64,000 bases of DNA from Candidatus Zixiibacteriota bacterium (GCA_024280215.1 JAJRQO010000022.1:6910-70909), one strand, 5' to 3'; shown: positions 23,073 to 44,362, numbered from the stretch's first letter. Notes: a model not told the origin generated them from the letters alone. Numbers and translations: made by a program.

Positions 23073-24260
23073 TTAATATCCCGATGGAAATGTCTTATCT
23101 TTTTTAAGGCGTTTGATCCATGAGCTGTATCCTTGTTCTTTTACAAATTCTACAACTCTTCTGAAACCCTCACCATAGTCGAGGTCTGGATCTTTAAAGA
23201 GTCTCTCAATGAGAAAAAAAGCATAGTCATCAGGGTATTGCTGCAAAATTAGATAGGCGACATAGTTGCAGCTCCCCTCACAAAAAGGAGCTTCAACATC
23301 TTTAGGACTATGAAGCCCTTGCCAGACATGATTAAACTCATGGGCAATGATTTTAATCATTGATAGTTTTGGTACGCCATTTAGTAAATATATATTTATA
23401 TCTCGCTTGAGTGTAACACCGAAAACATTTTTTTCCTGATAGAAAATGGTAAAGCCTTGTGGATTTGAAATTGTGTAGTTCACTAATTCATCTAATTCAG
23501 TTTTATTTACTAAATGAACTGATACTTTATTGAGAGGAATATCAAGTTGGTATGACTGCAACATTTCATTTACTTCAATAAGTAGTGGTTTGACCTCAGA
23601 GATTTCTGAAATTGCGTCTTCAGCACAGGTAAGACAAATACCTCGTCCATCAATATAGCTAAGTCCTTTTTTTTGGGTAGTGTTGTTGAAATAACCTCCG
23701 CAGTATTCGCATTTTTTGCTGTCCTGTATATGAGACTCATGATAATTATTTTTATATCTATCATATATGTAATCCTCGCTGATTACTTCAGAGCAGAGTG
23801 AACAGCGTAAAGCGACTTTGTTGGTATAGCAGGAATCATGATAGTTTTTATTTTCAAAAGTTATATAACTATCGGTAATATTTGTATTGCAATATGCACA
23901 TGGGAAAAATGAGACAATATCATAGCATTCTTTATGATAACTTTTTTCGTTATAGGTTGTGTATCTGCCGTTTACCTCTTTGTTACAATAGGCACAGTAA
24001 ATTAGGTGAATGATTTGGTAACAACTGTCGTCATAAAATTTTTCGTTTTCAAAATAATAAGTAGAACCTTTGATTCTCGATTGGCACCGTTCACAAATGA
24101 AATGTTTATTGTGAAAATAATAGCCGTTGGCTGATATAGGAGCTTTAATGATTTTTTCAGAACAATAGTGACAGATTTTCTTTTCTGCTGATTGGATTGT
24201 AACAGAGCAGAGGAGAATTAGAAAAAGAGAGTAAAGAATGTAAGCAGATTTTTTGTTCAT
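23073..24260 (-). CDS. Secreted protein with tandem LIM-like zinc fingers and a C-terminal DA1-like HExxH metallopeptidase domain
   Basis: Signal peptide. Five C-x2-C-x16-19-[HC]-x2-[CH] units. Then IAHEFNHVWQG...CEGSCNYVAYL, resembling the DA1-like peptidase core (HEmmHaW...EEGiCqv). Confidence 0.65.
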   Translation of the reverse strand: MNKKSAYILYSLFLILLCSVTIQSAEKKICHYCSEKIIKAPISANGYYFHNKHFICERCQSRIKGSTYYFENEKFYDDSCYQIIHLIYCAYCNKEVNGRYTTYNEKSYHKECYDIVSFFPCAYCNTNITDSYITFENKNYHDSCYTNKVALRCSLCSEVISEDYIYDRYKNNYHESHIQDSKKCEYCGGYFNNTTQKKGLSYIDGRGICLTCAEDAISEISEVKPLLIEVNEMLQSYQLDIPLNKVSVHLVNKTELDELVNYTISNPQGFTIFYQEKNVFGVTLKRDINIYLLNGVPKLSMIKIIAHEFNHVWQGLHSPKDVEAPFCEGSCNYVAYLILQQYPDDYAFFLIERLFKDPDLDYGEGFRRVVEFVKEQGYSSWIKRLKKDKTFPSGY

Positions 24261-28838: not shown

Positions 28839-31451
28839 TTAAAATTTAAATCCAATATGTAGATATACATTTTCTAAATCTTGATTGACGATGCCATATC
28901 CAAAAGTGAACGGTCCAATAGGAGAATCTAAAGAAAGTGATGCTCCTACAGCGTTTCTGAGATTACGTAGTTTAATTTGGTCGGTGCTGTTATACACTTC
29001 TCCAAGGTCGTAGCGAGCGGTGAAATAGATATTGAGTGGTAGGTTTAACCGTATTTCATTGGAGAAGATAAACATTTTATCACCTGACAATTGGTCTTTG
29101 CGGAACCCCGTAAATGAATTCAGTCCACCCAGATAGAACTGTTCCGATATCGGTAATCCCGAGCGTGATGCTCCCAAGGCAAGATGTGGATGGTAGGTAA
29201 AAGACTTGCTAATTGGAATGTAAGTTTCGTGAGATGTATAAAATTTAGTATACTCAATATCACCACCAACAAATTTCCCCACAAACTCTAAACGAAAAAT
29301 ATGTTTATTGCCCGAGCGTGTGAATGGTAACTGGTCAAAATTTTCAAACAGTGATTCAAATTTTAATTTTCGTAAGCCAAATGTTGTCGTGGTAGAAGTC
29401 TCAGAATCGAACACATCACGTTCTTTTATCGAAAGAGTAGCAGAGACTGTTCCGAGTCGTTCAATTTGTTGTCCGATACCTATTTGAAATCCAGTTGTTT
29501 TTTCGTCATGGTATCCAAGAGGACGATCTTCAAAATTGTATAATTGTCGGAGATATCGAGTATGGAAAATTTTAAACTGTGATGTCAGATAAGTTTTGAA
29601 AATCCTATCAGCTTTAAATGAGAAATAAAAGTTTTGACGGTTTGGTGCATAGCGAGCATGCAGTTTGTATTCAAGTCCTATGCCAGCAAAATTATCATTG
29701 AGCAACTCGATAAATTCTTCCGAATCAAACTCATCATCCCAGTGCCAACCGAACCTTAATCTTTTGCTATGTTTTTCCTTGACCCTGATACGCACTACTA
29801 CGCCATCATCAGAGGGGAGTGCATCAACAGTAACTCTTTCAAACAAATCGGTGCCATAAATATTACGAATTCCCTCAGATGCTAATTCAGTTGAATACGA
29901 TTCATTTTTTTTTAGAGGGAAATATGAACGGACGAACCAATCCTTAGTTGTTGTATTGTCTAAGATATTAATTGATTTTATTATCGCTTCGTCAATCTGA
30001 ACCATTAGAGTTGCATCGGACGAATCGATTGAGACAGATTCGATATTAACTAAATCATAATCGTGGGTCTGATACAATTCAAGGATTTTTTCTAATCCAT
30101 TCTGAATGATTTTAGGAGTTATAGGGGTGTTTTCTATCGTGAATAAATTTGCTAATTCCAAATCTCTGAAAATAGTGTTACCCGAAAATTGAAGTTTGAA
30201 TTTTTTAGCTTGAAAATTTTTGAATCCATCTATACTAATAGCTTTTAAAGCTACTTGTGATGAGTCAGAATTCATGTCATGTAAAGTTGCCGTTAATTTG
30301 AAAAAATTATTTTTGAGCGAAAACTGTTTGAGAATTTTTGTCAGTTTTTCAAGTGTCAATTTTTTATGAAATAATAATTTTTGGATTTTATTCAATTCAG
30401 ACGTTGTCAATGATTTCGAATCGATATTATAAATTTCACAAAAAGAAATTGATTGTGCTTCAGCAAGCATTGCAATGATTTTATCAGCAGCTTTGATTCC
30501 CTCGTAGTATCCGATAGCAATCAGGGTATCTTTTTTTTCAAATTGAGCATTGTGATAGTCATCAATTGGTGGACAAATCACATAGTCTGCTTTTTCAAGC
30601 TGTTCTTGAAGTTTGTCAGCCATCATAATTGAAGTGACCTGATTGGCTATATCTATTGGAGTTATAATCTCGTCTTTTTTAGCAAGTTTACTTGATGTAT
30701 TGATAGCAACAACAAACTGAGATTTCGTGGTGAGTGTTCTTGCTAAATCTACAGGAATCGGGTTAACCATTCCGCCATCCATAAGAATCCTCCCATCGAT
30801 TTCAATCCCAGTAAATGCAAGCGGGAATGCCATCGTTGCTCGCATTGCTTCGGCAATCGACCCATTTTGTAATATTACTTGTTCGCCACTTACAATATCA
30901 GTGCTAACAGTTAGAAATGGAATAGGTAATTTCGAAAAATCGGCATCACACTTGTATAATGCTTTTGTTGTTTGGCGTGTTAAGAGTGAAGTTAATTTTT
31001 GACCTGATGTTAAGGCTTTTGGTAAGACAGGTTTGAATTTATCAAATCGAATTGAGAGCAGATGTTGTTCATTTTCTTCCCGTTTAGTTAAAAACATAGA
31101 ATTGCGAGGAGGAGAATTTGCAAATAGAGTATTGAAATTTAACTCATTGGCAAATTCTTCGATTTCAAGAGGAGTGTAGCCAGAGGCATACAGCCCGCCA
31201 ATAATTCCACCCATTGATGTACCTGCGATACCGACGACTTCGATGTTTTTTTCTTCAAACGCTTTTAGAACACCAATTATGGTCATTCCTCTTGCCCCAC
31301 CACCAGATAAAGCGAGTAGAACTCGGAATTTATTTTCCTGCACATGTGGGTTTTGTCCGTCGAGACCACCAATAACGATTGTTTCATCGGCTAATATTGA
31401 CTGTGACGAAAAGATTATAATTAAATATAGAAAAAAGCTGATAATTTTCAC
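28839..31451 (-). CDS. Patatin-like phospholipase fused to POTRA + Omp85-type beta-barrel (PlpD-like, type Vd architecture)
   Basis: Signal peptide. Patatin motifs GGGARG, GTSMGG (GxSxG) and MDGG (catalytic Asp). The C-terminal ~300 aa are beta-barrel-like and end in HIGFKF. Confidence 0.85.
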   Translation of the reverse strand: MKIISFFLYLIIIFSSQSILADETIVIGGLDGQNPHVQENKFRVLLALSGGGARGMTIIGVLKAFEEKNIEVVGIAGTSMGGIIGGLYASGYTPLEIEEFANELNFNTLFANSPPRNSMFLTKREENEQHLLSIRFDKFKPVLPKALTSGQKLTSLLTRQTTKALYKCDADFSKLPIPFLTVSTDIVSGEQVILQNGSIAEAMRATMAFPLAFTGIEIDGRILMDGGMVNPIPVDLARTLTTKSQFVVAINTSSKLAKKDEIITPIDIANQVTSIMMADKLQEQLEKADYVICPPIDDYHNAQFEKKDTLIAIGYYEGIKAADKIIAMLAEAQSISFCEIYNIDSKSLTTSELNKIQKLLFHKKLTLEKLTKILKQFSLKNNFFKLTATLHDMNSDSSQVALKAISIDGFKNFQAKKFKLQFSGNTIFRDLELANLFTIENTPITPKIIQNGLEKILELYQTHDYDLVNIESVSIDSSDATLMVQIDEAIIKSINILDNTTTKDWFVRSYFPLKKNESYSTELASEGIRNIYGTDLFERVTVDALPSDDGVVVRIRVKEKHSKRLRFGWHWDDEFDSEEFIELLNDNFAGIGLEYKLHARYAPNRQNFYFSFKADRIFKTYLTSQFKIFHTRYLRQLYNFEDRPLGYHDEKTTGFQIGIGQQIERLGTVSATLSIKERDVFDSETSTTTTFGLRKLKFESLFENFDQLPFTRSGNKHIFRLEFVGKFVGGDIEYTKFYTSHETYIPISKSFTYHPHLALGASRSGLPISEQFYLGGLNSFTGFRKDQLSGDKMFIFSNEIRLNLPLNIYFTARYDLGEVYNSTDQIKLRNLRNAVGASLSLDSPIGPFTFGYGIVNQDLENVYLHIGFKF

Positions 31452-31516: not shown

Positions 31517-32299
31517 GTGGCAATTACAAGAAATGAATTAAAATTAGTAAAAACTTATTTGACTAAAAAAGGTCGGAAAACTCATAAGAAATTTCTCGCT
31601 GAAGGGGTTCGTCTGCTTGAGGATGCTTTTCGTCATCAGATTAATCCACAGGTCATTTATTATAGTAAATCTCATATAGATGTGAGAATCGAACATCTGC
31701 TGATGAATCTGAAGAAAAAAGAAGTACCTATTACACAAGTTTCGTCAAATGATATAAAACAGCTCTCTGATACAAAGTCTCCACAAGGTGTTGTTGGTGT
31801 ATTTAAAATGTTTGAACAGACCGCCGATGAATCTTTATCACGAAAAATCCGTAAGGTATTATGGTGTGAAAATGTATCAGACCCTGGCAATGTAGGTACT
31901 TTACTTCGTTCGGCTTTGGCATTCGGGTATCAGACAATTTTTGTGAGTGGTGATACGGCTGATATTTATTCTCCAAAAGTAGTCCGTTCTACAATGGGGG
32001 CGATTTTTAAACTGCATATTGTAAAAGATGAGACAAATAATCTTTTTAAACTTGTAGGGAAAAACAACTATAAGTTAGTTGCATCTGAAATGCATGGAAA
32101 ACCGATACATTTTGTAAAAAAACAGATAAAATCTGACCGTTTTGTTTTAGCAGTAGGTTCAGAAGGATTTGGATTATCGGATGAAATAAAAGCAAAAGCA
32201 GATTACTCTGTTCGGATTGACCATCATGATGCGGTTGAATCGCTAAATGTTGCTGTTGCTGGTTCTATTTTGATGAATGATTTACAAAAAGATGGATAG
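31517..32299 (+). CDS. TrmH/SpoU-family RNA 2'-O-methyltransferase (RlmB-like)
   Basis: 260 aa. SpoU motifs NVSDPGNVGTLLRSA, LAVGSEGFGLS and ESLNVAVAGSI. GTG start. Confidence 0.85.
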   Translation: MAITRNELKLVKTYLTKKGRKTHKKFLAEGVRLLEDAFRHQINPQVIYYSKSHIDVRIEHLLMNLKKKEVPITQVSSNDIKQLSDTKSPQGVVGVFKMFEQTADESLSRKIRKVLWCENVSDPGNVGTLLRSALAFGYQTIFVSGDTADIYSPKVVRSTMGAIFKLHIVKDETNNLFKLVGKNNYKLVASEMHGKPIHFVKKQIKSDRFVLAVGSEGFGLSDEIKAKADYSVRIDHHDAVESLNVAVAGSILMNDLQKDG

Positions 32300-32310
32300 A
32301 GGTCTTACAT

Positions 32311-33366
32311 ATGAAATTTAAAATTATCTCTTATCTTATAATAATACTCTTGTGTGTAGGAACTTTATCAGCACAGCAAGTTATACAAGTATCTGATAAT
32401 TTTTACCAGACAAGAGAGATAAAAAAAATTGCAAAGCTTTCTAAAGAAAGTAAAATAAATATTCAGGCTGCGGCTGGATTGACAGGTTCAATAAAAATTG
32501 AGACAACAGAAGAAGATGTTGCTACAATAATATACGTCAAACAGGCGAAGCATAAATCAAAGTCAAAAGCAATTGATTTTATTGATATTATCTCTGTTGA
32601 ATTTGAGTTAACGCACAATGGACTTCGAATTGATTTGAGAGCTCCAAATCCTGCTCCATGGAGTGGTTCTAATTATTCTGGCTCAGTTGAGGTTCTACTT
32701 ACTATACCAGAATTTTGTAATCTTGAATTTGATGCCCAAGCTTTTGATATTGATGCTGAGGGACCATTTGATTCATTCGTCTTACCAGCGTCCTATGGAC
32801 GGATTTATGTAGAAAACGTAGTGAAATCTTTGGAATTGACTGTATCCAATCGGAAAGTTACTGCTCGAAATCTTTCGGGTGATGTTTATATTTCAACTTC
32901 ACATGCTGCTCTACAAGTTGATAAAGTTCATTCTCCACATTCTAAAATTGAGTTAGAAAATGATGGTGGGGATATTAAAGTTGTTGATGTTGTTGGCGAA
33001 TTAGAGATTAGAAATTCGTACGGTCGTATTGATGTGCGGAAATTTCATCCGATGGGGAACTACAATCATATTCGTTCAACAAATGGACCAATAACAATTG
33101 AGGTCTCTGAATTTTCAACTACTAAACTTATTGTCACAAACAGTTATGAAGATATAGAGATTTTGATGCCTGAAGATATTTCTGCGACTTTATCGTTGGC
33201 AGTCGAAGAGGGAAGTAAAATTGAAGTGACCGATTTTTCGACAAAACCTGACTTTATCCAAAAAAACAGACTTACTTTAATTGCTGGAGATGGAGTTGCT
33301 AAGGTTAATAGCTCTATTCGTGGTCATGGAAATATTTATCTAAGAGGTTTTACAAAAGGAGAGTAA
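32311..33366 (+). CDS. DUF4097-like (putative adhesin, beta-helical) secreted protein
   Basis: Signal peptide. Repeated G-x-I-x-V / N-G-x-I strand pattern (GGDIKVV, YGRIDV, NGPITIEV, GHGNIYL). Confidence 0.55.
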   Translation: MKFKIISYLIIILLCVGTLSAQQVIQVSDNFYQTREIKKIAKLSKESKINIQAAAGLTGSIKIETTEEDVATIIYVKQAKHKSKSKAIDFIDIISVEFELTHNGLRIDLRAPNPAPWSGSNYSGSVEVLLTIPEFCNLEFDAQAFDIDAEGPFDSFVLPASYGRIYVENVVKSLELTVSNRKVTARNLSGDVYISTSHAALQVDKVHSPHSKIELENDGGDIKVVDVVGELEIRNSYGRIDVRKFHPMGNYNHIRSTNGPITIEVSEFSTTKLIVTNSYEDIEILMPEDISATLSLAVEEGSKIEVTDFSTKPDFIQKNRLTLIAGDGVAKVNSSIRGHGNIYLRGFTKGE

Positions 33367-33368
33367 TC

Positions 33369-35792
33369 TTGCGTAATACAATATATGTTCTGTTAGCGTT
33401 TTTATTTTTAACTCAAATATCATCTGCCCAAAGATTGGATTTGCCCGAAGAGCTTTTTTACTACCAACCAGCGGCAGCTGTTTTTGGTTCTGAAGCAACA
33501 TGGATAAACCCTGCAGGACTTTCTTTGTACCGAGCATCCGATGCTCAGGTGTTTGCGGAGTTCTACAAAGGTGATTTTGCCAAAAGCTGGGGAACTGTCT
33601 TTACCCGTGATGGATTTGGTATCGCTTATCGAAAAATAAATGTAGAAAATGATACTGACTTTAAAGAGTATCTTTTTTCTGGAGGTATGCAGGTAGGTCA
33701 AGATATGAGTTTTGGACTTTCGTATCAGTACATCAAAGAAGCTCCTGAATTATATAATAAAAAACATCTCTGGAATATCGGTCTGCTCGGAACTTTAAAT
33801 CCTCAATACCGTTGGGGGATAGTTCTCTCAAACCTGAATAATTCAACAATTGATAATATCAAAACAGAAGTTGAGATGCGTTACTCCTTGGCATACAGAC
33901 CGAGTGGTACAAAATTTACTATCGCTGTTGATGCATTTCTTTCTACAAAGACAAAATGGAGAAACGCCGATTTTATCTATAATGCGACATTTAACCCGAT
34001 ACCTGGTTTGTATGTAAACGGTCTTATTGATAGTGAGAAAAATTTTGAAATTGGTTTTCGTGTAAATTTCTTCAAATCATTTATCGGAGCAAGAAGAACA
34101 GCTCATAAAAATGGTCACCACCGAGGAACGACACTTTTCTATGGATCTACTAATAAACGACAAGAATCAATTGTCAAAGAAAAAAAACGAAGACTGCTGA
34201 CAAATATATCGGGACAGCCCAATGAAAACCCGTCGAAACCTTTTATAGGCAGACAACAACAATCATATTTACATCTTTTGACTGATATCTATCGAGCTGC
34301 CGATGATGACTCTATAGATGAGATGATTGTTTCACTCAAAAAACTTTCACTTGGATTTGCTCAAGCGGAAGAACTACGTGCGGCACTCAAAAATTTTAAA
34401 TCTAAAAAAAAAAGAATAATCTGCCATCTTTCGTATCCAAATAATCTTTCCTATTATGTTGCTTCTGTGTGTGACAAAATTATTATTCCTCCAGTTTCAC
34501 AGTTAAGACTTGTTGGGTTAAAAGCAGAGTTGACGTTTTTCGCTGGTACACTTGAGAAGTTAGGTGCAAAAGTTGAGTTATTAAAAATTGGTGACTATAA
34601 AACAGCAGCAGAAACATTCACACAAGAGACCTCCTCGAAAGCCAACAAAGAACAAATCAACAGACTACTTGATAATTTATATGAGCAGTTTGTCGCTGAT
34701 ATTGCTCTTGGTCGTTCTCTTTCTGTTGATAAGGTAAAAAAACTGATTGACCAAGGACCTTTTACAAGTACAGATGCTTTAGATGCTGGACTTGTTGATG
34801 GTGTCGCATATTTGGATGAGTTACAAAATATTGAAGTTCTCCGTGAATATTATCCTGAATTTGAATATAAATCAATTCCAGAAATTACTATTGCTGCCTA
34901 TCATGCTGATACGATTCTCTCTCATTCATGGGAGAAAAAACCAGTCATTGCTGTTATTGTTGCCCAAGGTGAAGTACAACCCGATGGTGCTTCATCGATG
35001 TTTGGTAGTAAGTCCGATGTAACTCCAGCTCTCATGAAAATATCTCTTAGGCAGGCAATGGCAAACCGACAAACAAAAGCGATTCTATTACGAATCAATT
35101 CCCCTGGTGGAGCTGCCTTAGCTGGAGAAGAAATCTATCATGCATTTAACAAAAATTCAGCTGTTCCAATGACCGTTTCAATGGGCAATGTTGCCGCATC
35201 GGGTGGGTACTATTTTGCTATGGCAGGAACAAAACTTTTTGCCAATCGCTCAACGATTACTGGTTCAATTGGAATTTTTGGTGGTAAGGTTGATTTGAGT
35301 GGGTTGCATGAGAAACTTGCATTGAAGAAAGAACTATATTTACGTGGGAAATATGCGGGGATGATGACTACGATGAAACCATTTACAATTGCTGAACGGG
35401 AAAAATATTTTTATCATTTATCAAGTATGTATAGTCACTTTATCGAACTTGTTGCCGAGAACCGTGCTTTACCCGTTGACTCTATTGACAATCTTGGACA
35501 GGGGAGAGTCTGGGTTGGGAGTGAAGCAAATCAAAATGGGTTGATTGATGAAATTGGAGGATTTAAAGATGCGCTTGATTATATTGCTTATAACGAAAAC
35601 TTATCATGCTACAATATAGAAATATATCCTCAGAAAAGACCTTTCATTATTTTGCCTGGAGGTTCACTTTTTTCTTCGATGGCTCATCTTTTTCAATCTG
35701 GTTCGGTTGTTGACTTTGTAGATGAAAAATTAAAACTTTTGAATACTGAGCAATTTTATACTCGAATGCCATTTGATATTTCAATAGAATAA
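33369..35792 (+). CDS. sppA: Signal peptide peptidase SppA (67K, two-domain type) with an extra ~270-aa N-terminal beta-rich PorV/PorQ-like domain
   Basis: The C-terminal ~530 aa show two ClpP/crotonase-like SppA halves (LRINSPGGAALAGE, GNVAASGGYYFAM). The N-terminus has a signal peptide and an EATWINPAGLS motif. Confidence 0.85.
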   Translation: MRNTIYVLLAFLFLTQISSAQRLDLPEELFYYQPAAAVFGSEATWINPAGLSLYRASDAQVFAEFYKGDFAKSWGTVFTRDGFGIAYRKINVENDTDFKEYLFSGGMQVGQDMSFGLSYQYIKEAPELYNKKHLWNIGLLGTLNPQYRWGIVLSNLNNSTIDNIKTEVEMRYSLAYRPSGTKFTIAVDAFLSTKTKWRNADFIYNATFNPIPGLYVNGLIDSEKNFEIGFRVNFFKSFIGARRTAHKNGHHRGTTLFYGSTNKRQESIVKEKKRRLLTNISGQPNENPSKPFIGRQQQSYLHLLTDIYRAADDDSIDEMIVSLKKLSLGFAQAEELRAALKNFKSKKKRIICHLSYPNNLSYYVASVCDKIIIPPVSQLRLVGLKAELTFFAGTLEKLGAKVELLKIGDYKTAAETFTQETSSKANKEQINRLLDNLYEQFVADIALGRSLSVDKVKKLIDQGPFTSTDALDAGLVDGVAYLDELQNIEVLREYYPEFEYKSIPEITIAAYHADTILSHSWEKKPVIAVIVAQGEVQPDGASSMFGSKSDVTPALMKISLRQAMANRQTKAILLRINSPGGAALAGEEIYHAFNKNSAVPMTVSMGNVAASGGYYFAMAGTKLFANRSTITGSIGIFGGKVDLSGLHEKLALKKELYLRGKYAGMMTTMKPFTIAEREKYFYHLSSMYSHFIELVAENRALPVDSIDNLGQGRVWVGSEANQNGLIDEIGGFKDALDYIAYNENLSCYNIEIYPQKRPFIILPGGSLFSSMAHLFQSGSVVDFVDEKLKLLNTEQFYTRMPFDISIE

Positions 35793-35823
35793 AAAAAGCG
35801 AAACCATGATAGTTTCGCTTTTT
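35791..35823. terminator. Bidirectional rho-independent terminator between convergent sppA and the pilX-like gene
   Basis: A7 - agcgaaac - catgata - gtttcgct - T5, read directly. Confidence 0.75.
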
Positions 35824-35842
35824 CGATTGTAGATATTATCGT

Positions 35843-37501
35843 TCAATTCTCATCTTCACCTTGGTAGATGTTAGTGTAACCAATATCAGATTGACTCCAA
35901 CCAGTCCTTTGGAAAATTCTTACAACAGGTGATTCAGGTGGTAGATTGGCAGGGTCATCAAGGTCAGTATCATATTGCCAATTTCTTATTGGCGGAGAGT
36001 AGTATGTACCATTCCATGTAGAATTTGCTTGTTGGGCATACCAAAGGTTTACCATAGAACCTTTCCAATTAAAGCTTTTACCCGACCAAACTTCTAAAAA
36101 ACGCGGGAGATTTTCAAATCCACCATTATAATTTGATGAAGTAGTTTCGATATTACCTGTCATGATTGAGGCATTAACATCTGTGTCTACTGCTATTCGA
36201 TTATTTTTATATAAATTACTCTTTGAATCATCAAAAGCACTTGATAAAAATGTCACTGCATCACCCATGATTGATGCAGGCTTTTTATTTGTTGAATTAA
36301 AATCTCCATAGGTATAGACTGGGTTTTCCGATGCAATCGTTAAAGCATCACCCAGTTCGGCAGCATTATTGATTCTAAGAGCTGGAAAATCTCCATTGTT
36401 ATCAGCAAAGTAAACAACACCATTGTCAGGAGCATATCCTTCACTATATAATAGACCAATATCAAATTCAGTGACATCTACCCATTTTTTATCTCGAGCA
36501 TCATAGAACTGATTGTTCTTTTTTTCAATGATACCTTTAGCCGTCATATCAGCAGTAACATTATTCCACACACCACCGACTAACTGAAAAGCTTCACCAT
36601 CAATAATTTTAAGAGTTGCTTTGTTTTCATATGAATCAGAATTTCCACCATCTTCACGTTCTATTAATTTATGGGCATCATCAGTTCCATTAAGGGGAAC
36701 ATTTAATTTTTCTTGCCCATGAGTAGAATCCTGAACACGACCATTCCAACGTGCAATTGAAGAATCATACCAATGAGAATCATCAGATTCAAGCCAAGCT
36801 GATCCCTCTTTCATACTTATGTAATCTCCTGACCCATCTTTAATCCGAACATCACCTGATGATACTCCCCCAGCACCTTTACGACCATGATGGATATTAC
36901 CAGCAGCAGTCACATAGCTGTCAATATTAAGTGTGTTCCCAGCTTGTAGCCAAAGGGAACCATTAGAATGAACCCTACCCAATAGTGACATGGTTGGTCC
37001 AGGTGCAATTTCTAAATCATTACCATAGAAAACGGCAAACTGAAAAATTGGGACTAATGCTCGTTCAAATGTTTGCGAGAGTTTAACAGATGCATTGTCA
37101 ATTTGACTAACAGCAGTAGCTTGCATGGCGTATGATTTTACTTGTGCATGGAGTCCCGCAAGAGTGCCATTACTTAAAGTTTTAATTTCAACAGGTCCTA
37201 AATCAACTGTCTCATATGAATAGTCTGAACCGTTTATATTGCCAGATCCTTCTGGCATTGTTGTTGTGATTGTACCTACTGAATCAGAGAGGAAATGTAA
37301 TCTTGCCGCAGCAGTTTCAAGTGCGGCTTCAGCAGAATAAAAAGCTTTGCTTTCCTGAAGTTCATTACCAGTTATAGTTACTTCATCATTAGATCTTGAC
37401 ATTGCAGCTAATCCTATAAGTGTAAGCATACCAACCATGATTAAAGCAATAAGAGCAGCAAAACCTTTCTCAGAATTTATTACTTGTGAAAATTTCATCA
37501 T
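35843..37501 (-). CDS. Large PilX-like minor pilin / pilus-tip protein (cassette 1)
   Basis: 552 aa. N-terminus EKGFAALIALIMVGMLTLIGLAAM...AFYSAEAALE matches the PilX_N-type hydrophobic helix. Last gene of the triad. Confidence 0.65.
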   Translation of the reverse strand: MMKFSQVINSEKGFAALIALIMVGMLTLIGLAAMSRSNDEVTITGNELQESKAFYSAEAALETAAARLHFLSDSVGTITTTMPEGSGNINGSDYSYETVDLGPVEIKTLSNGTLAGLHAQVKSYAMQATAVSQIDNASVKLSQTFERALVPIFQFAVFYGNDLEIAPGPTMSLLGRVHSNGSLWLQAGNTLNIDSYVTAAGNIHHGRKGAGGVSSGDVRIKDGSGDYISMKEGSAWLESDDSHWYDSSIARWNGRVQDSTHGQEKLNVPLNGTDDAHKLIEREDGGNSDSYENKATLKIIDGEAFQLVGGVWNNVTADMTAKGIIEKKNNQFYDARDKKWVDVTEFDIGLLYSEGYAPDNGVVYFADNNGDFPALRINNAAELGDALTIASENPVYTYGDFNSTNKKPASIMGDAVTFLSSAFDDSKSNLYKNNRIAVDTDVNASIMTGNIETTSSNYNGGFENLPRFLEVWSGKSFNWKGSMVNLWYAQQANSTWNGTYYSPPIRNWQYDTDLDDPANLPPESPVVRIFQRTGWSQSDIGYTNIYQGEDEN

Positions 37502-37516
37502 ATACCTCTGGCTTTC

Positions 37517-38338
37517 TTAGATTCCAACATTGCGTAAAAATACGGAAGTATTATATGTTCGTTCCCGAAAAACTCGATTTTCATCATTACTACCCTCAGC
37601 ATGAGGGGAATTAGATCGTGCCGACAGCTCGATTAGTACTTCTCTAATATTTTCCGCGATGAGCGGTACATCAACAGTCATACCATTTTTTAATTTATAC
37701 TGAAATTGTAAATCAAAAACATTATCAGCATATATTTGAGGAGTTTGTCCCATGATTTCAATCATCAACTTTGGATGCTCCACATCGGTTGTGTTATCTA
37801 TGTAAAACTTTACTTGAGTCATGGCAAAGACGAGGGCGTTTACATCATATGTTCTTGAAAGTGACATAGTATTATGTTGTAATTGTAATGTTGCTGTTTG
37901 TACTTGAGTAATTTCAAGCCATTCCCCTTTTGCGGAGTCGGCATCAAAAATATAAATCCATTGTCCATTATAAAAACAGGAAATATCTGAACCACATTTT
38001 AATTCTGCCGATGTGTTTGGCGTCGGTGCCGATAAATATGTGTCACAACCTGAATTTTGATATGTCAATACGATAGTATCTGGGTTAGTATCATACGCCT
38101 CGATGCCTTCAAGCCCTAAAGGAAGTTCATAGCCAGCCATACGAATCTGACGCGAAAGTTCATCTAATGACGCTCGGGCGTTTTGTTGTATGTCGGTGAC
38201 ATCATCTTGGATAAGATAGTTCTCATGTTGGTTCACATAAACACCCAATATTGAAGCAGTCACGATACCAGTAATGACAAGTGAAATGAGAGTTTCAAGT
38301 AAGGTGAAACCTTTTGGGTTATCTTTAATTATTTTCAT
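37517..38338 (-). CDS. PilW-like minor pilin (cassette 1)
   Basis: 273 aa. Prepilin class III signal KGFTLLETLISLVITGIV with Glu at +5 after the Gly cleavage site. DIQQNARASLDELSRQIRMAGY is typical of PilW. Confidence 0.75.
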   Translation of the reverse strand: MKIIKDNPKGFTLLETLISLVITGIVTASILGVYVNQHENYLIQDDVTDIQQNARASLDELSRQIRMAGYELPLGLEGIEAYDTNPDTIVLTYQNSGCDTYLSAPTPNTSAELKCGSDISCFYNGQWIYIFDADSAKGEWLEITQVQTATLQLQHNTMSLSRTYDVNALVFAMTQVKFYIDNTTDVEHPKLMIEIMGQTPQIYADNVFDLQFQYKLKNGMTVDVPLIAENIREVLIELSARSNSPHAEGSNDENRVFRERTYNTSVFLRNVGI

Positions 38339-38348
38339 AGTTCACCTC

Positions 38349-38723
38349 TTATAATGAATCTGTTTTAACAAATGATGTTATACTGCTTGAGACTTCATAA
38401 CCTTGTATATTTTGCCATGTTGCGGTAACATCAATTTGTTTGAGATGTTGGGCAGCACTCGATACTGTCCAGGCTCTTGAAATTCCAGCAGTTGTATCAA
38501 AGCCACTAACCGATGAATTCAGATTCGGGACATTTCGTAACTGTTCTAACTTTTCTTGGATAGCTTGTGTGGCAGCAGTATTTTTATTCGACCAGTCATT
38601 ACCATCTAAGGCAACCATCGACATATTGAGAAGCACCAGCAAAGCCATACCTAAAATTATCATGGCTACAAGTACTTCTAAAAGTGAAATACCGTTGTTC
38701 TCATATAATTTTTGTATCTTCAT
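38349..38723 (-). CDS. PilV-like minor pilin (cassette 1)
   Basis: 124 aa. N-terminus NNGISLLEVLVAMIILGMAL (prepilin-type methylation motif). Confidence 0.75.
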   Translation of the reverse strand: MKIQKLYENNGISLLEVLVAMIILGMALLVLLNMSMVALDGNDWSNKNTAATQAIQEKLEQLRNVPNLNSSVSGFDTTAGISRAWTVSSAAQHLKQIDVTATWQNIQGYEVSSSITSFVKTDSL

Positions 38724-39003
38724 TACTATTCCTTTTCCTAATTACTGACATATAGAGTAAATTCCATACCGAATGATAATAAAAAGGCATTCTATATTGG
38801 TATTGTCTCATACTATATTATCGGACAATAAATTAGGGGATCTTAATTAAAAGAGGAGAAGATGGAAAATAGTTTTAATAATCTATTATCTTCAATAAAA
38901 AGTAGTTTAATATCAGAGAGATATAGGAATATTCCCACACACTAACATGAAGTTTTTTTATGTTGAAGATAGAATTTGTCTTGTATCTAAGGTAAATAAT
39001 TAT

Positions 39004-39035
39004 ACAGATAGGGTCTTGGATGTGACCCTATCTGT
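39004..39035 (-). terminator. Strong hairpin (12-bp perfect stem) just downstream of cassette 2; probable terminator or attenuator separating the two cassettes
   Basis: acagatagggtc-ttggatgt-gaccctatctgt, 23 nt after the stop at 39058. The downstream tract on the minus strand is AT-rich but not a clean U-run. Confidence 0.5.
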
Positions 39036-39057
39036 AAGTTGTAAATCAATACAGAAC

Positions 39058-41151
39058 TTATTCAGAGTACCATGAAGTTTGTACCAGCAAAACTTTGGAA
39101 TCATCTTTAATATTTAAAAACGTTTTTAGTCGTTGATCGTAATGTAAGTTTAACCCACCTCCAACTAAAACACCAACATCGGCTGCAACAATTGAACCGT
39201 TAATGGTCATTTTACCTAATGTGTTAGATGCTTTACGAGTTAAAGCAAAAATTGAATTACTTGTATAAATCTGTCCGTCAATTTTGAATTCTTGACCTGA
39301 AGGACGTGCCGCATCGTTTGCCACCCACATTGATTTTAAGTTTTGAGGTGAAATCCAGTTTGAGGTGGTTGACAACGTACTGATAGATGCACCAGACAAA
39401 GCAGGTGTGCCCGCATTCAGTTTAGTTAAAACACTTAAATCATATGAAGATGCATGTTCTTTTACCTGCCAGCTATTTGAGGATGGATCCCAGTAGGTCC
39501 CTTTGGCTTTCCCTTTTTTATCCGTATAGTTTTTATTAAAGATATATACAGGATCACCTTCATTCATCACATAATACCTTGGTTGATAGCTTGGGTCATA
39601 GGTGCCATTTGGAACTAACCCACCATTGGCGTCAGGTAAAAATTCTTGGGTCTTGGTCCATTCACTTCTATTAAACAAAGTCATTTCTGATTGCGTAAAA
39701 GAGAACATTTCTCCTCCACTTAGATTGCCAGGGTCGTTGTCACTTATATTTGTATGATCACCTTTTTTAGGAGTGAGGTAATCACCCACCATTACATTTT
39801 TTCCGGCGGCAATAGAAAGTGCGTTTTGTCGTCCATTGGCTGAAGTACCAAAAGTTCTGTTCCCATTGTTTGTACCATCGGCATAAGTCAAATCGCCTGT
39901 TATATACACATTACCACGAGCATAAATTTGACCAGTACCAATAACTTTTCCTTGAATAACAACATCACCATCAACTGCAATATCACCAGATAAATCAATT
40001 GGGTTTGCATCGGTTCCAACTAAAATAAGGTTGCCTGAATAGGTGCCATTCACAGATGTTTCATTACCTGAACTTGGTAATGCACCAGAGTTGTAAGTTT
40101 GATTAGATTGAACACCATATATAATACCACCTGAAATTCCACCATTAGCACCTATTGCGATTTCGTCAAATTCAGCATCATCAACAATTTTATTCCCGTT
40201 ACCATCTGGAAAAGGAGGAGGGAACTCAGTTGGTAAAATACCATCAGTCATATTTCCTTGTTCAGTAGGATAGTTAAGATAGAGGTTCCCGTTTTGTGGA
40301 AGAGGTGAACCAGTAGCTACAGACAAGTTGACAGATGTTAGTGGCTCTTGAATTTTTCCATCGGATGCATTTATTGCATACCCTTCAACACCAGCACCAG
40401 TTGGAGATAAGTTAGTAATTAAATTACCAGCTTTATCGGTGACATTGCCACGTGTATAAATAGTTCCTGCAACATATGAATCTGCTTTTGTATCACGAAT
40501 TAACATTGATTCTAAAGAAGCAACTTTGACTCTGTCATAGGTGCCTTCTTTTGTAGGGTCAGTATTATACACTCTATCTACATTATCAATTCTTGCATGA
40601 CACATAATACAGTTGATATTATTTGCTAAAATTGCAAATTCAAACCCTTTGAATGCTTCACCTTCAACTCGTAATTGTGCTGAAATAGTATTTTGAGAGC
40701 CATCTAAAGCGCTTCCTGTTGAAGATACAGACAACAAAGTTGTACCTGTAACATCGGTTCTTGTTACCGAAACTTTTTCAACTGATTGTCCTCCACCTAA
40801 GTCAAATGAGCTATAGAGAGTAGAGGTTGTGTTATCTGTAAGCCCGAGATTATCAAGATATTTTTGATAGGTTGCCCGATTCCCTGTTTGTCCAGCTATT
40901 TTTTGAGGGTTTGTTGAACCCCACTCTACATAGTCACTCCACAGCATACTTTTTGCTAAAGCTAATCCTGCTTCAGATGAGTAGAATGCTTTAGTCATAT
41001 TATTTGAATTCGAGGAAATCGAGACATCATCACTTGATACTGAAAACATCGAAAAACTGACTACTGTCATCATCAATAAGAGCATCATAGCGACAAGGAT
41101 TGCCGACCCGTGTTCGTTTTTAATTTTGTTATACATAATCATATTCTCCAA
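39058..41151 (-). CDS. Large PilX-like minor pilin / pilus-tip protein (cassette 2)
   Basis: 697 aa. N-terminus HGSAILVAMMLLLMMTVVSFSMF...AFYSSEAGLALA (PilX_N-like). Beta-helix-like repeats (GDIAVDGDVVIQGKVIGTGQIYARGNVYITGDL). Confidence 0.65.
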   Translation of the reverse strand: MENMIMYNKIKNEHGSAILVAMMLLLMMTVVSFSMFSVSSDDVSISSNSNNMTKAFYSSEAGLALAKSMLWSDYVEWGSTNPQKIAGQTGNRATYQKYLDNLGLTDNTTSTLYSSFDLGGGQSVEKVSVTRTDVTGTTLLSVSSTGSALDGSQNTISAQLRVEGEAFKGFEFAILANNINCIMCHARIDNVDRVYNTDPTKEGTYDRVKVASLESMLIRDTKADSYVAGTIYTRGNVTDKAGNLITNLSPTGAGVEGYAINASDGKIQEPLTSVNLSVATGSPLPQNGNLYLNYPTEQGNMTDGILPTEFPPPFPDGNGNKIVDDAEFDEIAIGANGGISGGIIYGVQSNQTYNSGALPSSGNETSVNGTYSGNLILVGTDANPIDLSGDIAVDGDVVIQGKVIGTGQIYARGNVYITGDLTYADGTNNGNRTFGTSANGRQNALSIAAGKNVMVGDYLTPKKGDHTNISDNDPGNLSGGEMFSFTQSEMTLFNRSEWTKTQEFLPDANGGLVPNGTYDPSYQPRYYVMNEGDPVYIFNKNYTDKKGKAKGTYWDPSSNSWQVKEHASSYDLSVLTKLNAGTPALSGASISTLSTTSNWISPQNLKSMWVANDAARPSGQEFKIDGQIYTSNSIFALTRKASNTLGKMTINGSIVAADVGVLVGGGLNLHYDQRLKTFLNIKDDSKVLLVQTSWYSE

Positions 41152-42000
41152 TTAAAACCTATTATTTCGAATTAAGATATCGGTGCTTAGTGTTCTACGA
41201 CGACGCCCATCATTAGAACGTTTTGCAAGTTTGATATCAACATTAGCTGTATGAGCAGTAAGATTTACATTGACGACATGTACTGTGTCTGTTACTGCTA
41301 CCGTTGAAACAACACTATTATCTGAAAGAGTATATAGCAATTGAAAATCATCGATATTTTCAGCATAGATTTGTGGAAGACCACCATTACTCATTTTCAT
41401 AAAAAGAGGATTGGCAGTATCAGCACTATTTATAAAGTATGTGACTTCTTCCATTGCGAGAAGTTTATCGCCTGGCATTGGGTCAAACTGTAGTGTTTGC
41501 CCTTGATGATAGACTTCCTGCCAACCAGCACCATTATCAGGGACTATTTGTGTAATCGTGAGCCATTCACCCGAATTGGTATTTTGATGCCACAGAAATA
41601 CTGTCATACCAGCACTAAAGGCTGATAGATTATCACTTGTATTAAAGTGAATTGGCGATGTCTGCAGGACTTGAGTTTGTTCACCCACATCAATACTTCC
41701 GTTCATATAAGAATATCTAATGACAAGTGAATCAGGATTTCCATCGTTAGATTCAATTGATAAAAGATTATTTGGAAGATTTGACCCTGCGTTTCTTAAA
41801 GTAGAAGTAAGTTCCTGAATACATGCACGGAGGTTTTGTTGCATATCTGAAACATCATGTTGCACTAACATATTATTATGTTCAGAAACATAAAACTGCA
41901 ATGTTGCAGTAGTTAAAACGCCAGTTAATAAAATAGCAATCAACACTTCAACAAGAGTAAATCCGTTATGTGATTTTAATTTTTTCATAGTATCTTCCAT
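41152..42000 (-). CDS. PilW-like minor pilin (cassette 2)
   Basis: 282 aa. NGFTLVEVLIAILLTGVL prepilin motif. DMQQNLRACIQELTSTLRNAG parallels the cassette-1 PilW. No gap to the next gene. Confidence 0.75.
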   Translation of the reverse strand: MEDTMKKLKSHNGFTLVEVLIAILLTGVLTTATLQFYVSEHNNMLVQHDVSDMQQNLRACIQELTSTLRNAGSNLPNNLLSIESNDGNPDSLVIRYSYMNGSIDVGEQTQVLQTSPIHFNTSDNLSAFSAGMTVFLWHQNTNSGEWLTITQIVPDNGAGWQEVYHQGQTLQFDPMPGDKLLAMEEVTYFINSADTANPLFMKMSNGGLPQIYAENIDDFQLLYTLSDNSVVSTVAVTDTVHVVNVNLTAHTANVDIKLAKRSNDGRRRRTLSTDILIRNNRF

Positions 42001-42004
42001 TATC

Positions 42005-42400
42005 TTATATTTTTGATTTGAAAGTTGAATACTGTACAGTGCGTTGCTGGTTTTGTTTATCTACCCAACCAATATCGACACTAATTTTATATAAACCTGC
42101 TGGAATCATCGCATCAGAAATATCGTCTTCAACAATACGATTGACTAAATAGATTCCTCCAACTGAATCTGTTGTTGAATAAAAAGGGATTTGACCATAA
42201 TCTGATTGGTTGATCAAAACTTCAACTTCTTGTTGAGCAAGTGCATTGGCAACTGTCAGATCATCAGAATATGAGTTGCCATAAATTGAAACTGTTATTA
42301 AAGGAGCGAGTCCTAAAATACCGATTGCAAGTACTATCATACTAATCATAACTTCAAGTAAAGTGATTCCACTTTGATTTTTTAGCTTTATTTTTTTCAT
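42005..42400 (-). CDS. PilV-like minor pilin (cassette 2)
   Basis: 131 aa. QSGITLLEVMISMIVLAIGILGL prepilin motif. Confidence 0.75.
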   Translation of the reverse strand: MKKIKLKNQSGITLLEVMISMIVLAIGILGLAPLITVSIYGNSYSDDLTVANALAQQEVEVLINQSDYGQIPFYSTTDSVGGIYLVNRIVEDDISDAMIPAGLYKISVDIGWVDKQNQQRTVQYSTFKSKI

Positions 42401-42709
42401 ATTATTTCCATTTCCTTTATTATTATTACTTTTTTGTTATGTAAATTTCATACCAACGACGGTAATAATATTGATAATAATAGTTTTCTTTTTCTATTGC
42501 TATGTCGGATAAATGGTTACTTTTGTAACTCGATATATCGTTTAATATTAAATTGATTAGTTTTACCCCTATTTTTTAGAAAAAAGTAGTTTATTTCTGT
42601 GATGTATGGGAAACTTCCTACACCTTTTATGGTTATACATATTAATAATAGACCGATATTTATGGTATCTTATATAAATGACAATTGGGTTAGCTAAGGA
42701 GAGCTATAT

Positions 42710-44362
42710 ATGCTGAATGCATCAGAGATTTTTGTTAAAGCGTTAGAAAATGAGAAAACTGAATACATCTTTGGTGTACCAGGGGAAGAAAATATTGATT
42801 TCTTAGAAGCATTGCGGAAATCAAATATTGAATTCGTGCTTACTCGACATGAACAGGGTGCGGGGTTTATGGCTGATATCTATGGAAGACTCACTGGTAA
42901 AGCGGGTGTCTGTCTTGCAACTATCGGACCTGGCTCGACAAACTTGCTCACTGCTATTGCAGACGCAAATTTAGATAGAGCACCACTGGTTGCTATCACT
43001 GGACAAGCCGATACCAAACGGATGCACAAAGAGTCGCATCAGTTTATCGATATCGTTTCGATGTTTAAACCAGTCACAAAATGGAATACTTCTATAACCA
43101 GACCAGATATTGTTGCTGAAGCAGTTCGCAAAGCGTTCAAAATTGCCGAAGCTGAAAAACCAGGAGCGACACATCTTGAATTTCCTGAAGATGTTGCTAT
43201 CGAAGAATGTAAACGCCCAGAATTTTTTGATGTAAAAAAAGTTCGTCGTCCAGCCCCTGATCATAAAGCGGTCAAAATGGCAATTGAACTTATAAAAAAT
43301 GCCAAGAAGCCTTTGATACTTGCTGGTAATGGAGCGATTCGAAAACGTGCCACAAAACAACTTCGGATACTTTTAGATAAAACAAATATAGCTGTATGTA
43401 ATACTTTTATGGCAAAAGGTGCCGCGGGACATTTGTATGAACATAATTTGCTGACTATTGGACTACAATCAAGAGACCATGTTACCTGTGCATTCGATGA
43501 AGCCGATCTGATTATTTCTGTTGGATACGATATAGTAGAATACTCTCCAGAGTTTTGGAACCCAGATGGTGATAAGAAAATTATCCATATCGATTTTGAT
43601 TCTGCTGAAGTTGACTATTGGTATGACCCCGAAGTTGAAATTGTTGGCGATATTGCATCGACACTTTGGGAAATCAATGAACTAATCGATGATACCTTTC
43701 CAAAAAATATTGGTAAATTTGCTACCAAACATCGCAGAAAAATTTTAAAAGAGATGCATGAATATGATGATGATAAATCATATCCAATAAAACCGCAGAA
43801 AATTCTACATGATATTCGTGAAGTATTGGACGATGAAGATATTCTCATCTCCGATGTTGGTGCTCATAAAATGTGGATTGCCCGTATGTACACTGCTCGT
43901 GAACCGAACACCTGTCTTATCTCAAATGGATTCGCCACGATGGGGATTGCACTTCCAGGTGGTATTGCTGCTCAAATGGTTTTTCCAAAGAGAAAAGTGC
44001 TTACAGTCTCTGGTGATGGTGGATTTCTTATGAATGTGCAGGAACTTGAAACAGCAGTTCGGCTCAAGACTAATACCGTTAATCTTATCTGGACTGATGG
44101 TACCTTTGGACTTATAGAATGGAAACAGAAAAACAAATATGGTCATGCTTTTGGAACAAAATTTAACAACCCCGATTGGGTGAAGATGGCTCAATCATTT
44201 GGAGCGGTTGGTATCAAAGTGAAAAAAGGGGATGACCTTGTCAAAATCCTCAAAAAAGCATTTAAGATGAATAAACCTGTTGTCATAGATGTACCAGTTG
44301 ATTATTCTGAGAATGTAAAACTGACCAAACGTCTTGGACAGCTTGTCTGCCCTATAGGATAA
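42710..44362 (+). CDS. Thiamine-diphosphate-dependent enzyme, acetolactate synthase (catabolic AlsS-like) family
   Basis: 550 aa. TPP_enzyme N, M and C layout. RHEQGAGFMADIYGRLTGKAGVCLATIGPGSTN and the TPP-binding GDGGFLMNVQELET motif. Confidence 0.8.
   Translation: MLNASEIFVKALENEKTEYIFGVPGEENIDFLEALRKSNIEFVLTRHEQGAGFMADIYGRLTGKAGVCLATIGPGSTNLLTAIADANLDRAPLVAITGQADTKRMHKESHQFIDIVSMFKPVTKWNTSITRPDIVAEAVRKAFKIAEAEKPGATHLEFPEDVAIEECKRPEFFDVKKVRRPAPDHKAVKMAIELIKNAKKPLILAGNGAIRKRATKQLRILLDKTNIAVCNTFMAKGAAGHLYEHNLLTIGLQSRDHVTCAFDEADLIISVGYDIVEYSPEFWNPDGDKKIIHIDFDSAEVDYWYDPEVEIVGDIASTLWEINELIDDTFPKNIGKFATKHRRKILKEMHEYDDDKSYPIKPQKILHDIREVLDDEDILISDVGAHKMWIARMYTAREPNTCLISNGFATMGIALPGGIAAQMVFPKRKVLTVSGDGGFLMNVQELETAVRLKTNTVNLIWTDGTFGLIEWKQKNKYGHAFGTKFNNPDWVKMAQSFGAVGIKVKKGDDLVKILKKAFKMNKPVVIDVPVDYSENVKLTKRLGQLVCPIG

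Follow-up and report, generated by a model that had tools for sequence, protein, structure and literature searches.

Two tandem minor-pilin cassettes with ComZ-like candidate tip pilins in a Candidatus Zixiibacteriota bacterium

Locus organization

A 64,000-nt stretch of DNA from a Candidatus Zixiibacteriota bacterium (GCA_024280215.1, JAJRQO010000022.1:6910-70909), referred to here in its whole length as the window, carries on its minus strand two tandem cassettes of three genes each, sets A and B, which encode a small (V), a middle-sized (W) and a large (X) minor-pilin-like protein. In the map of open reading frames (ORFs), set A (V_A, W_A and X_A) occupies positions 42400-39058 and set B (V_B, W_B and X_B) positions 38723-35843, with gaps of 0-15 nt between the genes of a cassette, and all six ORFs are undisrupted and have the full length of their homologues. 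Coordinates, sizes, gaps and the lack of disruptions agree with a preliminary description of this DNA that had been made from the sequence alone.

Set A begins with V_A (42005..42400, minus strand), a 131-aa GspI/PilV-like minor pilin with the leader MKKIKLKNQSG/ITLLE (the slash follows the Gly that ends the leader) and with Glu5 present. The next gene encodes W_A (41152..42000, minus strand), a 282-aa middle minor pilin in the PilW/GspJ position with a leader ending in SHNG/FTLVE, and the last one X_A (39058..41151, minus strand), a 697-aa candidate ComZ-like tip pilin that starts with TTG and has a leader ending in NEHG/SAILV, without Glu5. X_A comprises a PilX_N helix, a pilin beta-sheet, a large beta-solenoid and a C-terminal strand; the database gene call of the identical protein is 692 aa long. 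In set B, the corresponding proteins are V_B (38349..38723, minus strand; 124 aa, GspI/PilV-like, leader MKIQKLYENNG/ISLLE), the middle minor pilin W_B (37517..38338, minus strand; 273 aa, leader ending in NPKG/FTLLE) and X_B (35843..37501, minus strand), a 552-aa candidate ComZ-like tip pilin with a leader ending in SEKG/FAALI and with neither Glu5 nor cysteine.

Each cassette is followed by its own terminator-like hairpin. The hairpin after X_A (39003..39036, minus strand) starts 21 nt past the stop codon and consists of a 13-bp perfect stem with an 8-nt loop, followed by the terminator-like tail TAATTATTTA, while the one after X_B (35792..35824, minus strand) has 15 pairs followed by a T-run. 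Based on these hairpins, the two cassettes look like separate transcription units. The spacer between them (38724..39057, minus strand; 334 bp) is the presumed promoter region of set B; both the spacer and its hairpin had been recognized previously, the latter with a stem of 12 bp that in fact measures 13 bp. The presumed promoter region of set A is a divergent intergenic region of 309 bp (42401..42709), which also lies 5′ of a plus-strand gene for a thiamine pyrophosphate (TPP) enzyme. One weak promoter-like site was seen upstream of set A (42451-42422, minus strand), and sigma-70-like hexamers in the leader regions and the spacer were not more frequent than in shuffled sequence, so that no promoter is claimed. 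An Rfam scan of positions 35700-42800 for riboswitches or regulatory RNAs, e.g., for cyclic di-GMP (c-di-GMP), 5′ of either cassette yielded nothing above chance, and the microRNA 'hits' it returned were the hairpin itself.

Minor-pilin signatures of the six proteins

The leaders of the V and W proteins are short and basic, end in Gly and are followed by [FI]-[ST]-L-[LV]-E and a hydrophobic helix. All four proteins score above the Pfam cut-off of 21.2 bits for N_methyl (PF07963; V_A 31.1, W_A 28.4, V_B 23.0 and W_B 28.5 bits), in support of the prepilin cleavage motif that had been proposed for them. As read from their sequences, X_A and X_B also have Gly at -1 and a hydrophobic helix and are devoid of Glu5, as expected of a tip subunit of the GspK/PilX type. 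Their scores with PilX_N (PF14341), 22.0 bits for X_A and 23.9 bits for X_B, are slightly below the cut-off of 25.5, and PilX_N is the precomputed annotation of most of their homologues.

The outcome with the NCBIfam models was mixed, as is typical for divergent minor pilins. The PilV model (TIGR02523, cut-off 52.2 bits) gave 39.3 bits for V_A, with the match at the PilV N-terminus, and 32.7 bits for V_B, and the GspI model (TIGR01707, cut-off 44.35) matched V_B alone, over its full length, with 41.2 bits. The W proteins had weak GspH/GspJ matches, with at most 12.8 bits for GspJ against a cut-off of 64.85, and beyond the helix matched neither PilW nor GspJ. With GspK, the two X proteins reached 26.3 and 19.1 bits (cut-off 130), in the N-terminal helix only. 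The HpsA model (NF038301, cut-off 400) gave 57.3 bits for X_B, with its best stretch limited to residues 146-196, and no match for X_A. Searched against PDB sequences, the V and W family profiles matched only the N-terminal helix of other pilins, and no catalytic family was detected in the X proteins with Pfam or NCBIfam. Taken together, the sequence evidence supports an assignment of V as GspI/PilV-like pilins, of W as pilins in the PilW/GspJ position and of X as Glu5-less pilins in the PilX/GspK position. The PilV, PilW and PilX types named in the preliminary description are consistent with this, with N_methyl above its cut-off in V and W, and PilX_N and the GspK N-terminus recognizable in X.

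Predicted structure of the X proteins

The AlphaFold2 models of the X proteins, obtained from alignments of 73 (X_A) and 71 (X_B) sequences, were confident, with a predicted local distance difference test (pLDDT) of 92.9 and a predicted template modelling score (pTM) of 0.87 for X_A, and a pLDDT of 85.4 and a pTM of 0.81 for X_B. Both models contain, in this order, a long N-terminal alpha-1 helix, a four-strand sheet, many short solenoid strands and a long C-terminal strand, which agrees with the published descriptions of ComZ (PMC6561018) and of the cyanobacterial PilX (10.64898/2026.02.12.705559). When the models were compared with the PDB using Foldseek, the only hits of X_B with E ≤ 0.001 were two chains of 6qvi, i.e., ComZ (best E 2.8e-10, probability 1.00), and the sole hit of X_A at this threshold was one 6qvi chain (E 1e-5, probability 1.00), while GspK gave no significant match with either model. 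Among PDB sequences, ComZ was also the sole hit of the X_A family profile (E 0.04, over the pilin core from alpha1C to the sheet) and a marginal one of the X_B family profile (E 0.59), and the single X_A and X_B sequences returned chance hits only, to flagellin and carbonic anhydrase (E ~0.05). The models thus support the view of X_A and X_B as ComZ-type tip pilins, in which a beta-solenoid would be inserted into a pilin fold ahead of its last beta-strand.

A conserved CxxCH motif in X_A

The only two cysteines of X_A, C181 and C184, lie in NINCIMCHARID and form with H185 a CxxCH motif (CIMCH in translation; 40597..40611, minus strand) at the entry to the beta-solenoid. The preliminary description had pointed to X_A as a large PilX-like protein and had overlooked this motif. 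In the model, it lies in a short helical turn, flanked by two strands, where the solenoid opens; confidence is high in this part of the model. C181, C184 and H185 are three of the 33 invariant columns in the 73-sequence alignment, which has a mean column identity of 34%. Exactly one CxxCH is present at the equivalent position in 118 of the 120 listed homologues, the other two being N-terminally truncated fragments, and in 47 of the 120 its cysteines are the sole ones of the protein. A further 137 representatives comprised 124 that retain C-C-H in the aligned columns, 10 fragments and three proteins of full length that have lost both cysteines, so that the motif is kept in 242 of the 245 family sequences covering the site. 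Among 120 X_B-family proteins, none contains CxxCH, and the counterpart of the motif in X_B, as given by the profile alignment, is NDLEIAPGP.

CxxCH is the canonical site of covalent haem c attachment. General pilin topology places the motif C-terminal to the transmembrane helix and hence, presumably, in the periplasm before assembly. Since the globular part of a pilin is periplasmic at that stage, the Ccm/Ccs haem-attachment systems could reach the motif. Candidate distal ligands are partly conserved (H566 in 88%, M648 in 81% and M301 in 75%), and no cytochrome family matched X_A in Pfam or NCBIfam. The motif suggests a covalently bound haem or metal site at the pilus tip; alternative readings are a disulfide-bonded CxxC next to a His, or a metal site formed by Cys2-His plus a carboxylate. 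More specifically, X_A and its family of ~300 clusters may be tip pilins with a covalent c-type haem that would be loaded in the periplasm on CxxCH before assembly, a proposal that we put forward tentatively and regard as somewhat doubtful. In the literature, we found no haem- or CxxCH-bearing pilin, and the nearest item was TfcP, a separate periplasmic cytochrome c, not a pilin, that supports PilY1 in Myxococcus (PMC8833165).

Origin of the tandem arrangement

W_A and W_B can be aligned over their full length (BLASTP; 32% identity, E 9e-47), whereas the BLASTP similarity between V_A and V_B, and between X_A and X_B, is confined to the N-terminal ~60 residues. The two cassettes had been described as clearly related paralogues, which by BLASTP is true of W as a whole and of V and X in this N-terminal part. 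In a profile-profile comparison, the X_A and X_B families align over 304 columns (probability 97.5%, E 5e-12) that span the helix, the pilin sheet and the first part of the solenoid. Given the extent of this alignment, the homology goes beyond the helix, and X_A and X_B are homologous but very old paralogues.

The members of each set are closer to distant orthologues than to their neighbours in the window. V_A shares 58-60% identity with A-type V proteins at unlinked loci elsewhere versus 30% with V_B, and W_A shares 44-48% with A-type W proteins elsewhere versus 31% with W_B. In the same identity matrix, set B is likewise nearer to its distant orthologues than to set A, with 49-52% identity between W_B and the W proteins of two distant relatives (loci L001 and L002). 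In these two relatives (L001 on a 2.26-Mb contig) and in a third one (L003), a single B-type trio is found in the same slot as in the window, i.e., between the gene for aldehyde dehydrogenase or the TPP enzyme and the genes for SppA, a protein with a domain of unknown function (DUF), SpoU and a patatin-Omp85 protein; V_B orthologues occupy this slot in L001 and L002. The syntenic block shared with L001-L003 is located at 28839-31451 (minus strand) and 31517-35792 (plus strand) of the window, and encodes a patatin-POTRA-Omp85 fusion, a Tll0287-like protein, a SpoU methylase, a 351-aa protein with no Pfam match and an 807-aa SppA. In its distribution, set B resembles a core housekeeping gene of the phylum.

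Lone A-type trios occur at unrelated loci (L004/L013, L008 and L009), and an A-type X homologue directly follows other pilin genes in one locus each of the Methylomirabilales (L006/L021) and the Hydrogenedentota (L005). The A-then-B tandem in the B slot is common only to the window and its closest relative (L007/L010), and two other loci (L018 and L019) show the reverse order, B then A. As the B trio is alone in the same slot in distant relatives, set B is the ancestral resident and near-universal in the phylum. The lone B slot, the occurrence of A elsewhere and the existence of both orders indicate that the tandem is a derived, lineage-specific juxtaposition of two ancient, usually unlinked modules. 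A recent duplication in place is ruled out by the orthology matrix and the synteny. The notion of tandem, diverged paralogous cassettes therefore stands as far as the old paralogy is concerned, but a local duplication as their origin does not, because the sets are usually unlinked.

Distribution, conservation and gene neighbourhoods

The X_B family has more than 1000 homologues, and the 120 listed ones share 60-86% identity with X_B along the entire protein, most of them carrying the label Zixibacteria. Across the phylum, X_B proteins are 60-70% identical, and in the X_A family identities range from 31 to 66%. An exhaustive profile search at E ≤ 1e-30 placed the X_A family at 294 clusters (50% identity), and X_A relatives were detected in 207 of the 185,579 species-representative genomes scanned. 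The 78 listed X_A loci all derive from metagenomes of uncultured organisms belonging to the Zixibacteriota, Hydrogenedentota, Planctomycetota, Methylomirabilales and a few others.

The degree of conservation bears on the role of the large X proteins, for which a function as tip adhesins had been envisaged on the basis of their size and beta-helix-like repeats. The predicted beta-solenoid tip subunits, whose models match only ComZ, are in line with the structural part of that proposal. A variable, fast-evolving adhesin is disfavoured, since, when the same pairs of genomes are compared, X is conserved no less than V and W (relative to L001, X_B 66%, W 52% and V 60% identity; relative to L004, X_A 61%, W 44% and V 60%). 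This argues for a conserved ligand bound by X, or for a role of X as a structural plug.

Clustering of all ORFs of the 78 loci showed V+W+X to be the only recurrent unit, with an extra pilin of ~198 aa beside the trio in six of them, and revealed no recurrent genes for a pilus motor, platform, secretin, cytochrome or ccm system. A single locus of 86 has the signature of a PilB/GspE-type ATPase (L020, 3486-12109; Planctomycetota metagenome-assembled genome, JAJDCN010000090.1). There, the genes for an MshEN protein, a T2SSE/MshEN ATPase, a REC-GGDEF-HD-GYP protein and an HD-GYP/HDOD protein directly precede the A-type trio on the same strand. Through this locus, the A family is physically linked to a motor of type IV filaments and to c-di-GMP signalling. 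An HD-GYP gene also adjoins the A trio of L008.

In 35 of the 78 loci, which do not include the window, a secreted HEAT_2-repeat protein of ~308 aa is encoded ~18 nt downstream of the X_A homologue, with examples in the Hydrogenedentota and Planctomycetota (L005, 12388-13308; L053, 12230-13156). HEAT-repeat lyases of the E/F type attach bilins to cysteines. A link of the HEAT_2 protein to CxxCH would be pure speculation.

Other genes in the window

All ORFs of at least 110 aa outside the cassettes, excluding shadow ORFs nested in longer genes, were scanned with Pfam, and no pilus or type II secretion system (T2SS) family was found among them. A six-frame scan for prepilin leaders retrieved the six cassette proteins and one spurious match at position 3099. 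By these two scans, the 64-kb window contains no FimU, PilY1 or PilE, and the absence of these proteins and of any other pilus gene nearby, which the preliminary description had noted, holds throughout it. The flanking genes are housekeeping genes, encoding SppA, a SpoU methylase, a patatin-Omp85 protein, a TPP enzyme and an aldehyde dehydrogenase.

Three further genes of the window deserve mention. At 1006-1341 (plus strand), 35 kb from the cassettes, a 111-aa ORF contains a TfoX_N domain (47 bits, cut-off 30.1). TfoX/Sxy proteins are regulators of competence pili in some bacteria; a tie of this ORF to the cassettes would be conjectural. A 395-aa protein encoded at 23073-24260 (minus strand) combines two LIM domains with a DA1-like peptidase region, a combination characteristic of eukaryotes (plant DA1) and unusual for a bacterium. 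Finally, a 1104-aa protein encoded at 51619-54933 (plus strand) has weak BNR, dockerin and BACON-like matches only; it may be a secreted glycan-binding or glycan-degrading protein and is unrelated to the cassettes.

Discussion

We consider it probable that the locus encodes two ComZ-type core sets of minor pilins, acting in tip formation and priming, of a type IV filament machine encoded elsewhere. In such a system, the motor, platform, secretin and major pilin would be specified by other parts of the genome. The V, W and X proteins of each set would be processed by a prepilin peptidase and associate via their N-terminal helices into a trimeric cap, which would prime filament assembly and then stay at the tip. 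The bulky inserted beta-solenoid would confine X to the very tip, where X could plug the filament in place of the missing PilY1 and present a binding surface. Set A would represent a second set of ancient divergence, whose different solenoid bears the CxxCH site, and the cell could mount two different tips on one machine.

The closest structural counterpart of the X proteins is ComZ of Thermus thermophilus (PDB 6QVI), in which a triangular beta-solenoid is inserted into a GspK-like pilin domain in a protein of ~550 aa (PMC6561018). ComZ binds the neighbouring GspI-like PilA2 as well as DNA, and its position at the tip has been argued on steric grounds (PMC6561018). Like ComZ, the X proteins are large and pilin-like, have a predicted solenoid and are encoded together with a small GspI-like pilin, and ComZ is their sole significant structural match. 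They differ from ComZ in their marginal sequence similarity, as seen in the E-values of the profile searches, and in a low global template modelling score (TM-score). The alignment of ComZ to X_A lies outside the CxxCH region. While the Thermus locus combines four pilA genes, including that of the major pilin, with comZ, the trios described here are free-standing. DNA binding by X_A and X_B, as in ComZ, would be no more than an analogy.

The preliminary description had proposed that two alternative priming or tip complexes could confer two specificities on one pilus machine, and cyanobacteria provide a direct experimental precedent for two such complexes serving one machine. Cyanobacteria possess a Com-type and an exopolysaccharide (EPS)-type set, each composed of FimT, PilW, PilV and PilX, which prime distinct competence and motility filaments on one machine (Schuergers et al., bioRxiv 2026, 10.64898/2026.02.12.705559). 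All cyanobacterial PilX proteins have a ComZ-like beta-solenoid between the penultimate and the last strands, one PilX subfamily (PilX-EPS) is homologous to HpsA, and, in the absence of PilY1 from cyanobacteria, the solenoid has been proposed as a substitute for its plug function (10.64898/2026.02.12.705559). The present sets resemble the cyanobacterial ones in the presence of two anciently diverged sets per genome, which may be linked or unlinked, in the solenoid-type PilX and in the absence of PilY1, so that by comparison the window shows essentially the same logic in another phylum. The differences concern the phyla (Zixibacteria, Hydrogenedentota, Planctomycetota and Methylomirabilales) and the presence of CxxCH in X_A, which distinguishes set A from the cyanobacterial sets. 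In addition, the HpsA likeness of X_B is only local (57 bits versus a cut-off of 400). In cyanobacteria, PilV and PilX subfamilies co-occur within each set, and the preprint reports a deep split in PilV and PilX only, whereas two W subfamilies are also found here.

Likenesses to the tip of the T2SS include the size order of a small, a medium and a large subunit, as in GspI-GspJ-GspK, the Glu5-less large cap and the score of V_B near the GspI cut-off. The insertion of GspK is alpha-helical. ComZ superposes on GspK by its pilin domain only and has a different insertion (PMC6561018; the GspI-GspJ-GspK tip complex is PDB 3CI0, as cited therein). Unlike in T2SS loci, gspH, gspG and the remaining gsp operon are absent from the window, and the GspJ and GspK models were matched at the N-terminal helix only. 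In type IVa pili (T4aP), the priming module comprises FimU-PilV-PilW-PilX-PilY1-PilE, its minor pilins form a complex that initiates assembly and remains at the tip, and M. xanthus has multiple minor-pilin/PilY1 sets (PMC8833165). The present sets would share with T4aP and M. xanthus a tip-priming minor-pilin complex, alternative sets per genome and a functional tie of a c-type cytochrome to the tip complex (TfcP), but those systems have four minor pilins, a separate PilY1 adhesin and a small PilX, while here the CxxCH lies within the candidate tip pilin itself. The locus also departs from a classical fimU-pilVWXY1E operon in that PilY1, FimU and PilE are missing, PilV remains below its cut-off and PilW has no Pfam hit.

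Several observations weigh against two ComZ-type core sets. The global superposition of X and ComZ is poor (TM-score 0.19-0.31, root-mean-square deviation 15-18 Å); because of these low scores, the likeness to ComZ is one of architecture and of local structural alignment, not of a rigid-body fit. Cyanobacterial and proteobacterial sets have four members including a FimT-type pilin, while the cassettes have three genes, and no fourth core pilin of the FimT/FimU/GspH type was found in the window by the leader scan, which gave three leaders per cassette; such a pilin could be encoded at another place in the genome. Neither assembly machinery nor a major pilin is encoded within the 64 kb. When the family assignment was checked with profile hidden Markov models, as had been suggested, N_methyl was recovered in V and W and PilX_N fell just under its cut-off, and neither W_A nor W_B matched the Pfam PilW or T2SSJ models.

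The T2SS had been considered earlier as an alternative, and in that case the trios would form a GspI/J/K-type pseudopilus tip in which the solenoid caps act as substrate-contacting pistons, not as surface-pilus tips. The nearly sufficient full-length score of V_B with GspI (41.2 versus 44.35 bits), the match of both X proteins to the GspK N-terminus, the weak GspH/GspJ hits of W and a weak T2SSJ hit of the homologous middle pilin in L006 are all compatible with this reading, and so are the ATPase of L020, whose family is common to T2SS and type IV pili, and the pilin domains of ComZ and PilA2, which are structurally closest to GspK and GspI (PMC6561018). We nevertheless regard it as unlikely and as weakened by the present results. 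No gspC-M gene adjoins the trios in the window or in the 86 related loci, the GspK match is limited to the N-terminal helix (26 bits versus a cut-off of 130), and the significant PDB matches of the X models are to ComZ only and never to GspK. Moreover, the only characterised proteins with the architecture of X, ComZ and the cyanobacterial PilX, are type IV pilus proteins, and the ~60 Å wide cap is treated in the literature as a pilus tip (PMC6561018).

A function of X outside filaments appears more improbable still. X would then be an envelope-anchored beta-solenoid enzyme or binder, such as a polysaccharide lyase, a hydrolase or an HpsA-like protein for EPS handling, and its pilin-like helix only an anchor. 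Beta-solenoids are indeed typical of polysaccharide-active enzymes (PMC6561018), X_B has a local motif in common with HpsA, which is needed for hormogonium polysaccharide secretion, and all six proteins are acidic, a poor obvious fit to DNA binding. Yet, in every phylum examined, each X gene is strictly accompanied by genes for two bona fide prepilins. The leader of X has Gly at -1 and, as is typical of tip pilins, a helix without Glu5, the whole-chain structural match of X is a pilin, ComZ, and X belongs to no catalytic family of Pfam or NCBIfam; HpsA itself is now classed as a PilX subfamily of the priming complex (10.64898/2026.02.12.705559). We give very little credence to the third possibility, that one cassette is a redundant duplicate heading for decay and that the tandem has no functional meaning. 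It could be invoked for the closest relative, L007/L010, where both X genes are called in two pieces (49+515 aa and 129+417 aa; 9467-11548 and 13110-14773 in L007, GCA_024278935.1). In L007, however, an unrelated neighbour gene is also split (220+108 aa versus 351 aa in the window), and for this reason the split genes are most likely assembly frameshift errors and not pseudogenes. In the window itself, all six genes are intact and of full length, in accordance with the earlier remark that none of the ORFs is disrupted; both families show conservation across phyla (identities of 60-70% for X_B and 31-66% for X_A), and the members of each set are closer to distant orthologues than to the neighbouring paralogue.

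Conclusions

The architecture of the putative caps is known from Thermus and cyanobacteria; new here are the phyla, the free-standing three-gene format and a cap family bearing CxxCH. For the pilus machinery of Zixibacteria, we found nothing relevant in the literature. If two ComZ-type core sets are indeed encoded at this locus, the tip built from ComZ or a beta-solenoid PilX without PilY1 would extend from Thermus and cyanobacteria to several uncultured phyla, which suggests that the ComZ-like design may be widespread and ancient, as an alternative to the PilY1 design of proteobacteria. The use of two core sets on one machine would then be no peculiarity of cyanobacteria, and ~1000 proteins annotated as 'hypothetical' or as 'PilX N-terminal domain' proteins could be reclassified as ComZ-like tip pilins of two families. 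Should a haem be confirmed in X_A, the pilus tip would bear a cofactor, of relevance to electron sensing or exchange by sediment and subsurface bacteria. A redox-active or a gas- or redox-sensing cofactor would then occupy the extreme end of a retractable type IV filament, and this would constitute a new link between pili and electron transfer, mineral contact or redox sensing, unlike cytochrome nanowires or TfcP.

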